UHGV virus genome: UHGV-0140649
Strand: one strand, 5' to 3'
Length of the DNA: 11,552 bases
From: a virus
How positions within the stretch are numbered: the first letter of the stretch is position 1; every line of letters starts with the position of its first letter. Below the pieces are notes generated by a model that did no database searches, was not told the origin of the DNA, and was given only the letters and a program-made list of their open reading frames with translations. A program made the position numbers and the translations under genes. This document shows positions 9,633-10,658 of this stretch, one piece after another.

Positions 9633-10658
9633 ATGAAAGATATTATTAATGTTTCAAGTCTGGACGACATTGAATCTTTGTTTGCAAGGTTAGATGGTGG
9701 CGAAGAGATCACTATCGACAGGATCAAGTTAGACCTCTTCAATAATGTGAATTTTAAGATTTATGGTGATCCTTCTCGCTACAACGGAACGCTTCCATCT
9801 CCTCTAGCTCAGGGTTTATGCGAATTTCAGACTGAAATTTATAAAGTTTTCACACTAATAAAATATAAAACTGACAACCTTCAAAGGTTAACTGGTAAAG
9901 ATAAAGAGGAAGCAGAGATCATCTTTACCATTAATGAAGGTTGTACTGATATACTTGCTGCATTAACAGAGCTTTTTGAAGCATTCGGTAAAGCCTTTGA
10001 GAAGGTAACACACGGTATGAGTCCTAGCCAAAAAACATTATGCTTCTTGTTTGCTGTCACCGTTATAGGCGGTGCATGGGTTGGTACATCATACTTAGAG
10101 AAAAAAGCCGAGGTAGAAGTCAAGCAAGAAGAAACAAAGCTCGAAGAAGCCAAGATTAAATCAGAAAACGAGCGCATGACGATATTAAGGGACGGAATGC
10201 TTGAGGCGATTAGAGCAAAAGCGGGCATAGATGCAGTAGAGCGCGCCGAAGGGATTCAAGAGCATACTGCAAAAGCGTATACAGGGGTATTAAAAGGCGC
10301 GTCTGATGCTGACAAAATTGTCATATCAGGCGCAAGCACAGTTGAACTGTCTAACAAAGAAATCCACGAACTAATCAAGAACCCTATCGAAAAAGCAAAA
10401 AAAGAAGAAAGAAACCTTGAATTAGTCATTGATGGAATCAAGCGTACTGCGGAAAAGATAACCCTAAGCTGCCGCGAACCATCTAGTGAAGACAGTTTCC
10501 CTGTTTCGGTGGACACGTCGTTCATAGATGATAAAGACGAGATCGCCATACTGTTTGATACAATGAAAGAAAACAGGACAGTAAAAATCTTGGGAAGCTA
10601 CACGATACGAGCAGGTGTAATAGAAAACGGAAACGCATCAACCATCACTCGCCCATAA
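9633..10658 (+). CDS. Hypothetical membrane-anchored coiled-coil protein (341 aa) in the rexAB-equivalent position
   Basis: AT-rich ORF with AAGGTG 5-6 nt upstream of its ATG, 80 bp after cI on the same strand and followed by a terminator. One hydrophobic segment (TLCFLFAVTVIGGAWVGTSYL), then a K/E-rich stretch (EKKAEVEVKQEETKLEEAKIKSENER). No family recognised. Confidence 0.7.
   Translation: MKDIINVSSLDDIESLFARLDGGEEITIDRIKLDLFNNVNFKIYGDPSRYNGTLPSPLAQGLCEFQTEIYKVFTLIKYKTDNLQRLTGKDKEEAEIIFTINEGCTDILAALTELFEAFGKAFEKVTHGMSPSQKTLCFLFAVTVIGGAWVGTSYLEKKAEVEVKQEETKLEEAKIKSENERMTILRDGMLEAIRAKAGIDAVERAEGIQEHTAKAYTGVLKGASDADKIVISGASTVELSNKEIHELIKNPIEKAKKEERNLELVIDGIKRTAEKITLSCREPSSEDSFPVSVDTSFIDDKDEIAILFDTMKENRTVKILGSYTIRAGVIENGNASTITRP

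Follow-up and report, generated by a model that had tools for sequence, protein, structure and literature searches.

Lambdoid phages carry cargo genes immediately downstream of the repressor gene cI, and as a kind the cargo of this defence hotspot is well known. In lambda, the site holds RexAB, a two-component system of a sensor and a channel which lies between cI and the terminator Timm, upstream of OL/PL, is presumably expressed from the cI promoter in the lysogen, and has one component embedded in the membrane. RexB is a multi-pass protein; among other tenants, BstA has a KilA-N domain, and Stk is another product of this slot. The cI-N interval has been described as a hotspot of mosaic character where RexAB and BstA are found (PMC8585504), and published work also puts the HigBAC defence at the cI-downstream locus, a variable defence locus. 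Here we analyse the gene found at this place in the UHGV virus genome UHGV-0140649. The window, that is, the whole stretch of 11,552 nucleotides (nt) that was analysed, is the early region of a lambdoid Escherichia coli prophage, and the gene, which we call gene X (9633-10658, + strand), belongs to the protein family PHROG 6191 and encodes a predicted single-pass membrane protein of 341 amino acids (aa). The X family adds a further recurrent tenant to a slot which has already yielded RexAB, BstA and HigBAC.

X shares with RexAB its place between cI and Timm upstream of OL/PL, its homologous flanking DNA, its presumed expression from the cI promoter and a membrane-embedded product. It differs in being a single open reading frame (ORF) between cI and the terminator, in having one predicted transmembrane helix and two soluble domains, unlike RexB, and in showing no sequence similarity to RexA or RexB (PADLOC, X and 45 diverse family members). 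With BstA and HigBAC it shares the locus and a presumed promoter in common with the repressor, and a HigB cassette replaces X behind an identical cI; X is nevertheless unrelated to them, with no KilA-N, HigB or HTH domain in Pfam. HK97 gp15, T4 Imm and P22 SieA are small inner-membrane superinfection-exclusion proteins. The product of X resembles them as a prophage-encoded inner-membrane protein that would be made in the lysogen, and gp15 lies beside tail genes, as do some X homologues, but X is larger, combines a conserved, predicted cytoplasmic domain with an OB-fold and has no Pfam SieB or Imm match. AbiP of Lactococcus and PdpSau of Staphylococcus aureus prophages are, like X, single genes of mobile elements which combine one helix with an OB-fold, the helix being an N-terminal anchor and the positively charged C-terminus being cytoplasmic (PMC10127798). 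In contrast, X has an extra conserved N-terminal domain of 130 aa, a central helix (residues 135-153), an acidic OB-fold domain and a C-terminus predicted to be periplasmic, and no sequence similarity between X and these proteins was detected with tblastn in 50,697 phage records.

Gene X in the rexAB slot

The DNA directly after X (10672-10789) is 88% identical to lambda 35710-35824, a segment which starts one base past the rexB stop codon in the annotated lambda record. Since the downstream flank matches lambda from the base after rexB, X occupies the rexAB position, as a preliminary description made from the DNA letters had proposed. Upstream lies cI (8848-9552, + strand), the first gene of the lysogenic operon, whose 234-aa LexA/S24-type product combines HTH and S24 peptidase domains (Pfam Peptidase_S24, E 3.8e-16) and is labelled cI or LexA family in PhiR12_1 and RM10740. 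The spacer between the end of cI at 9552 and the ATG of X (9553-9632, + strand) is 80 nt long and contains the Shine-Dalgarno motif AAGGTG (9622-9627), 5 nt ahead of the ATG. Downstream, an intrinsic terminator homologous to lambda Timm (10672-10697, + strand; CCCGGCCTCAGCGCCGGG followed by TTTTCTTT) begins 13 nt past the end of X; its stem (10672-10689) has 6 base pairs, all GC, and the corresponding element is labelled Timm in the mEp332 annotation. The OL operators and the PL promoter follow further downstream at approximately 10870-10925 (+ strand), with operator-like ATTTATCA-type repeats at about 10875-10925 which recur in the OR region (8746-8830), and a PL-like promoter, TTGCCA-17-TAAAGT, at 10892-10920. 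The preliminary description had therefore been accurate about the 341-aa frame on the strand of cI, the 80-nt gap, the good ribosome-binding site and the terminator that closes X off before OL/PL.

A scan of the cI-X spacer finds neither a promoter on the + strand nor a terminator. The spacer does contain a perfect TATAAT (9588-9593, + strand), which we considered as the promoter of X and rejected: it has no recognisable -35 element and is not kept in related cassettes (L004-L007). It is probably not a dedicated promoter, and a weak constitutive start may occur there. Homology among the X cassettes upstream of the gene ends 45-75 nt before the ATG. On the other side, the Timm-type motif ACCCGGCC...GCCGGGTTTT stands after the X homologue at nearly all loci examined, including those of members with 24-45% identity. 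With neither a terminator nor a conserved promoter in the spacer, the simplest expression model is transcription reading through from the cI promoters, and we infer from this layout that X is co-transcribed with cI.

The position is kept across a wide range of phages. We assembled 37 IMG/VR loci with an X homologue, about 28 of which have enough upstream sequence to be assessed. At 24 of these, an S24/HTH repressor gene on the same strand immediately precedes the homologue; the spacing between the two varies from -4 to 219 nt, with an intervening gene at one locus. At least 11 cI types precede X homologues, and these repressors are mutually only 19-64% identical, while the X homologues in the slot span 100% down to 24% identity. 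Three groups of cultured coliphages carry the family. In PhiR12_1-5, X is 99.7% identical and stands behind cI. In mEp332 (42% identical), the annotated order is cI, 'conserved hypothetical mEp33204', Timm, oL, this distant member having entered the databases in 2007 as a hypothetical gene in place of rexAB. In phi458 the homologue (24% identical) is Orf11, immediately after CI. Thus, the family is readily testable in cultured phages.

The same repressor can also be followed by quite different genes. Stx1a-converting phages share the 234-aa cI in identical form and match the OL/PL/N flank at 98.8% identity, but have three other genes in the slot (LC727891, 1650-2991). These are a gene for a HigB toxin (Pfam E 4.5e-30), one for an HTH protein of 218 aa and an ORF of 134 aa for which Pfam gave no SecB match. 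The gene order of this cassette agrees with the published HigBAC toxin-antitoxin-chaperone defence, to which we liken it by order alone. Complete E. coli genomes have HigB cassettes, an SDH Clp-fold protease, DUF2335 or other hypothetical proteins after the same cI, and elsewhere rexB or a HicA toxin abuts the same Timm flank. The slot downstream of cI is a cargo-swap site.

The preliminary description had also suggested horizontal acquisition, on the ground that X is much more AT-rich than its surroundings. That ground proves overstated: the GC content of X (40.4%) differs from that of the window (47.0%) and of cI (44.7%) in a real but modest way, only the first 400 nt or so of X falling to 36%, and we discarded base composition as a sign of transfer because a contrast of 40% against 45-47% is too weak. 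Mobility itself holds, being better supported by the mosaic distribution of the family behind at least 11 repressor types.

Away from this slot, other X homologues adjoin tail-fibre or tailspike genes, a SopA-like effector gene, an integrase or the PADLOC candidate defence gene PDC-S31, which are typical positions for morons (cargo genes). At locus L036, a gene (2245-3027, + strand) for a DUF2971 protein matching PDC-S31 (E 3e-22) lies immediately behind an X homologue of 45% identity. These neighbourhoods suggest that X homologues can sit in small accessory or defence gene clusters. Separately, a truncated, 245-aa form of X (95% identity, 56% of length) is found on 53 contigs, for example in E. 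coli STEC1585 (NZ_CP129252, 3232234-3232971); a decayed or shortened X allele circulates in E. coli.

Family and architecture of the X protein

The ratio of non-synonymous to synonymous substitution rates (dN/dS) of X is 0.096 against a 90%-identical homologue, synonymous sites being saturated in more distant pairs, and X homologues form 58 clusters at 90% identity. This shows that X is a real gene under purifying selection. The PHROG 6191 hidden Markov model matches it over its full length (E 4.7e-98, X residues 5-340 against positions 8-333 of 338 in the profile); this is the sole family match for X, and its function field reads 'unknown'. An exhaustive phmmer search of 1.84 billion cluster representatives at E<=1e-3 recovered 429 relatives (50% identity clusters). 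The family occurs in phages that infect many different hosts, one of Pasteurella among them, and in environmental contigs. Full-length matches are nearly all of 300-380 aa. Among 184 near-full-length members (300-420 aa), the N-terminal domain is matched in all 184 and the C-terminal domain in 182, so that the family has one fixed architecture. We had considered the C-terminal domain as a variable sensor module exchanged between members and set this aside, the domain being homologous in 182 of the 184 and hence not swapped.

Pfam holds no family for X at E<=1, including T2SSM, SieB, Imm, KilA-N, HigB and HTH. We dismissed the NCBIfam match HP1233_fam (E 0.019), whose 15 bits fall short of the cut-off of 50. 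The PDB profile matches obtained with the whole family and with the N-terminal domain, to proteins that combine a transmembrane segment with a coiled coil (MotB at E 0.012, ATP synthase b) and to ribosomal proteins, are weak and compositional and are not taken as homology. Family searches with 45 diverse members gave scattered single-member matches, which we treat as noise, and Foldseek against BFVD returned only uncharacterised phage proteins and OB-fold proteins. The preliminary description, which had recognised no family, is thus nearly right, PHROG being the exception beside Pfam, NCBIfam, PADLOC and PDB. A search for housekeeping families and structural phage protein families that X might match with confidence gave none. 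The homologues in mEp332 and phi458 are annotated only as hypothetical proteins, and a functional study was not found in the literature on PhiR12, mEp332, the protein accessions and PHROG 6191.

To describe the protein we use an AlphaFold2 model built from a 41-sequence alignment (mean predicted local distance difference test score, pLDDT, 80; predicted template modelling score 0.67). Residues 1-130 (9633-10022, + strand; 1-125 in the model) form an acidic alpha/beta domain, predicted to be cytoplasmic, which is the best conserved part of the family and for which no known fold was matched. It is followed by a transmembrane helix (residues 135-153, 10035-10091, + strand, TLCFLFAVTVIGGAWVGTS) with a conserved Gly-Gly. 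A linker (152-167), modelled with low confidence, leads to a K/E-rich charged segment (168-222, 10134-10298, + strand) which is predicted to fold as a helical hairpin (helices 168-196 and 199-222, pLDDT about 80-87), and the model places a small beta unit between this hairpin and the C-terminal domain. The latter (256-341, 10398-10655, + strand; isoelectric point, pI, 4.95) is an acidic, predicted OB-fold. Its barrel (256-339) has five strands, with a helix lying between the third and the fourth, and superposes on known OB-folds. The preliminary description had foreseen a soluble N-terminal region of about 130 aa, one transmembrane helix and a C-terminal domain, all of which reappear here; its charged K/E-rich segment is present too, as a hairpin in the model rather than the coiled coil it had supposed.

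A hydrophobic segment of 19 residues near residue 133 is the single most hydrophobic one in 177 of 182 members (300-390 aa), with a Kyte-Doolittle hydropathy of 1.8 on average and up to 3.1, and the transmembrane helix is therefore well supported. Concerning its orientation, the 15-residue flank on the N-terminal side of the helix has a higher net charge than the 15-residue flank on the C-terminal side in 135 members and a lower one in 26. Bacteria rarely translocate an N-terminal domain of 130 residues without a signal peptide. Together, the charge bias and this rarity favour a protein with its N-terminus in the cytoplasm and its C-terminus in the periplasm, an arrangement which we regard as rather likely.

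The acidity of the OB-fold domain is a family trait, with a pI below 6 in 133 of 177 members. This is unlike nucleic-acid-binding OB-folds and fits a domain that binds protein or glycan outside the cytoplasm. In a broad alignment no polar residue is invariant, the only invariant or near-invariant positions being G45, L86, G103 and M129, which disfavours a role as an enzyme. What is new here is the recognition of a large, architecturally uniform family as a recurrent occupant of this slot. The family combines an unmatched N-terminal fold with a membrane-tethered, probably periplasmic OB-fold, and the libraries searched (Pfam, NCBIfam, PADLOC and PDB) do not contain it.

Candidate functions of X

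We propose that X is a mobile single-gene cargo (moron) of the lysogenic cI operon. Read-through from the cI promoters, stopping at the Timm-type terminator, would make the lysogen produce X continuously. The protein would be a single-pass inner-membrane protein with its acidic domain probably in the cytoplasm, its glycine-containing helix probably packing with others into an oligomer, and its charged hairpin and acidic OB-fold domain probably facing the periplasm. Its role would be to guard the lysogen against other phages at the level of the cell envelope. It would do so most probably by hindering genome delivery across the inner membrane (superinfection exclusion), the periplasmic hairpin and OB-fold domain binding either a part of the arriving ejection machinery or an entry factor of the host.

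The position in the slot, the swap partners and the moron-like distribution argue for a phage-directed accessory function. From position and architecture, we put the probability that X serves phage exclusion or defence of some kind at roughly 55%. X is a good but not surprising candidate for single-gene phage defence. Within this, a block of phage entry at the inner membrane is a tentative choice. It is slightly preferred because of the predicted periplasmic acidic OB-fold, the copies adjacent to tail genes and the lack of enzyme-like conservation, and because continuous expression is tolerable for a passive blocker. If X does exclude phages, it would define a new single-gene family of envelope-level defence, and possibly a new use of a periplasmic OB-fold; if it does not, a tenant of the 'defence slot' can do something else.

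Several points weigh on the other side. The characterised tenants RexAB, BstA and HigBAC all act by abortive infection and not by blocking entry, and Stk, also a tenant of the slot, acts by abortive infection too. Known entry blockers are usually much smaller and have no conserved cytoplasmic domain of 130 aa. No PADLOC model matches X at E<=10, nor any of the 45 diverse members, and no phenotype is on record for any member of the family. X is also rare, being present in 5 of 5426 complete E. coli genomes. Finally, the predicted topology has just two supports, the charge-bias rule and the rarity of long translocated N-termini, and counts of lysine and arginine alone give a weak signal (more on the N-terminal side in 88 members, more on the C-terminal side in 46, equal in 43).

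An abortive infection system ranks close behind the entry block and is possible, if somewhat doubtful. X would then lie idle in the inner membrane until an infecting phage triggers its transmembrane helices to form or open a pore, with depolarisation and death of the cell before progeny are made, in the manner of RexB or PdpSau. It has the slot and operon of RexAB, in a slot which also holds the abortive BstA and HigBAC; the Gly-Gly in the helix and the helical hairpin suggest an oligomer, and the combination of a membrane anchor with an OB-fold also occurs in AbiP and PdpSau (PMC10127798). On the other hand, X has one transmembrane helix, no channel-like bundle and no separate sensor gene, and it resembles neither RexA or RexB nor any PADLOC Abi model. 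A pore former made continuously at the level of PRM would need tight control, of which none is shown here.

Lysogenic conversion unrelated to phages is a possibility of the same rank: X would be an envelope protein that alters host physiology, stress tolerance or host interaction, the slot being used only for good expression in lysogens. Morons in lysogen-expressed slots include non-defence genes, and bstA was first tied to virulence phenotypes (PMC8585504). The only published trace of the X family points in this direction as well, the homologue UTI89_C5141 being listed (clone value 1.65) among bladder-epithelial-cell-induced genes in a promoter-trap screen, and some members adjoin a SopA-like effector gene. 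However, the spread of the family over phages of many hosts, including Pasteurella, fits a phage-directed role better than a host niche, and the swap partners identified in the slot are the HigB toxin cassette and rexAB.

A variant of defence which we consider unlikely is an outside-in sensor. Here the periplasmic hairpin and OB-fold domain would sense tail-tip or ejection proteins, or the envelope damage caused by them, before or during DNA entry, and the signal would pass through the oligomeric helix to the cytoplasmic domain as effector. If true, a single protein would provide a defence by transmembrane signalling, and its effector fold would be new.

It is less likely still that X is a membrane-tethered nucleic-acid binder like AbiP and PdpSau, with the opposite topology and a cytoplasmic OB-fold that binds phage DNA or RNA. 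As the helix is central, this topology would require the 130-aa N-terminal domain to be translocated with no signal peptide; the flanking charges favour an outer C-terminus (135 members against 26), the OB-fold domain is acidic where the C-terminus of PdpSau is positively charged, and the tblastn search returned no staphylococcal or lactococcal match. Equally improbable is a function of the phage's own, as a GspM/PilO-like or spanin-like envelope component or a lysogeny regulator: although the GenBank label 'T2SS GspM containing protein' on the PhiR12 and mEp332 homologues suggests it, and the order of a transmembrane helix and a helical, presumably periplasmic segment recalls GspM, PilO and i-spanins, the label is not supported, since Pfam T2SSM is not matched and the modelled C-terminal domain is an OB-fold whereas the GspM fold is ferredoxin-like, and X moreover lies in the lysogenic operon rather than a lysis cassette and is dispensable, since phages with the same cI do without it.

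Other features of the window

Beyond OL/PL, the + strand encodes the N antiterminator (11169-11552, running past the window end; Pfam N_peptide, E 2e-15). The minus strand carries the remaining early genes, namely a cro-like gene (8501-8734), cII (8066-8362), the replication gene O (7064-7885), a DnaB-type helicase (5691-7067), an Ant/Rha antirepressor (2671-3399) and Q (1504-2022), together with NinB and NinG. Between NinB and the antirepressor lies a 355-aa ORF with a C-terminal P63C domain (3545-4612, minus strand), in a relatively AT-rich stretch (39-44% GC); this ORF may be a further accessory gene inserted into the nin region.

Downstream of Q, the Rfam small RNA STnc100 is matched over its full length (967-1172, minus strand; 143 bits against a gathering score of 47). 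The segment 1-960 (minus strand) is GC-rich (55-59%) and lacks a complete ORF, its gene continuing beyond the edge of the window; the segment matches part of a NanS-p-type carbohydrate esterase gene of the SASA family at 99.9% identity, and many E. coli carry several copies of that gene per genome.
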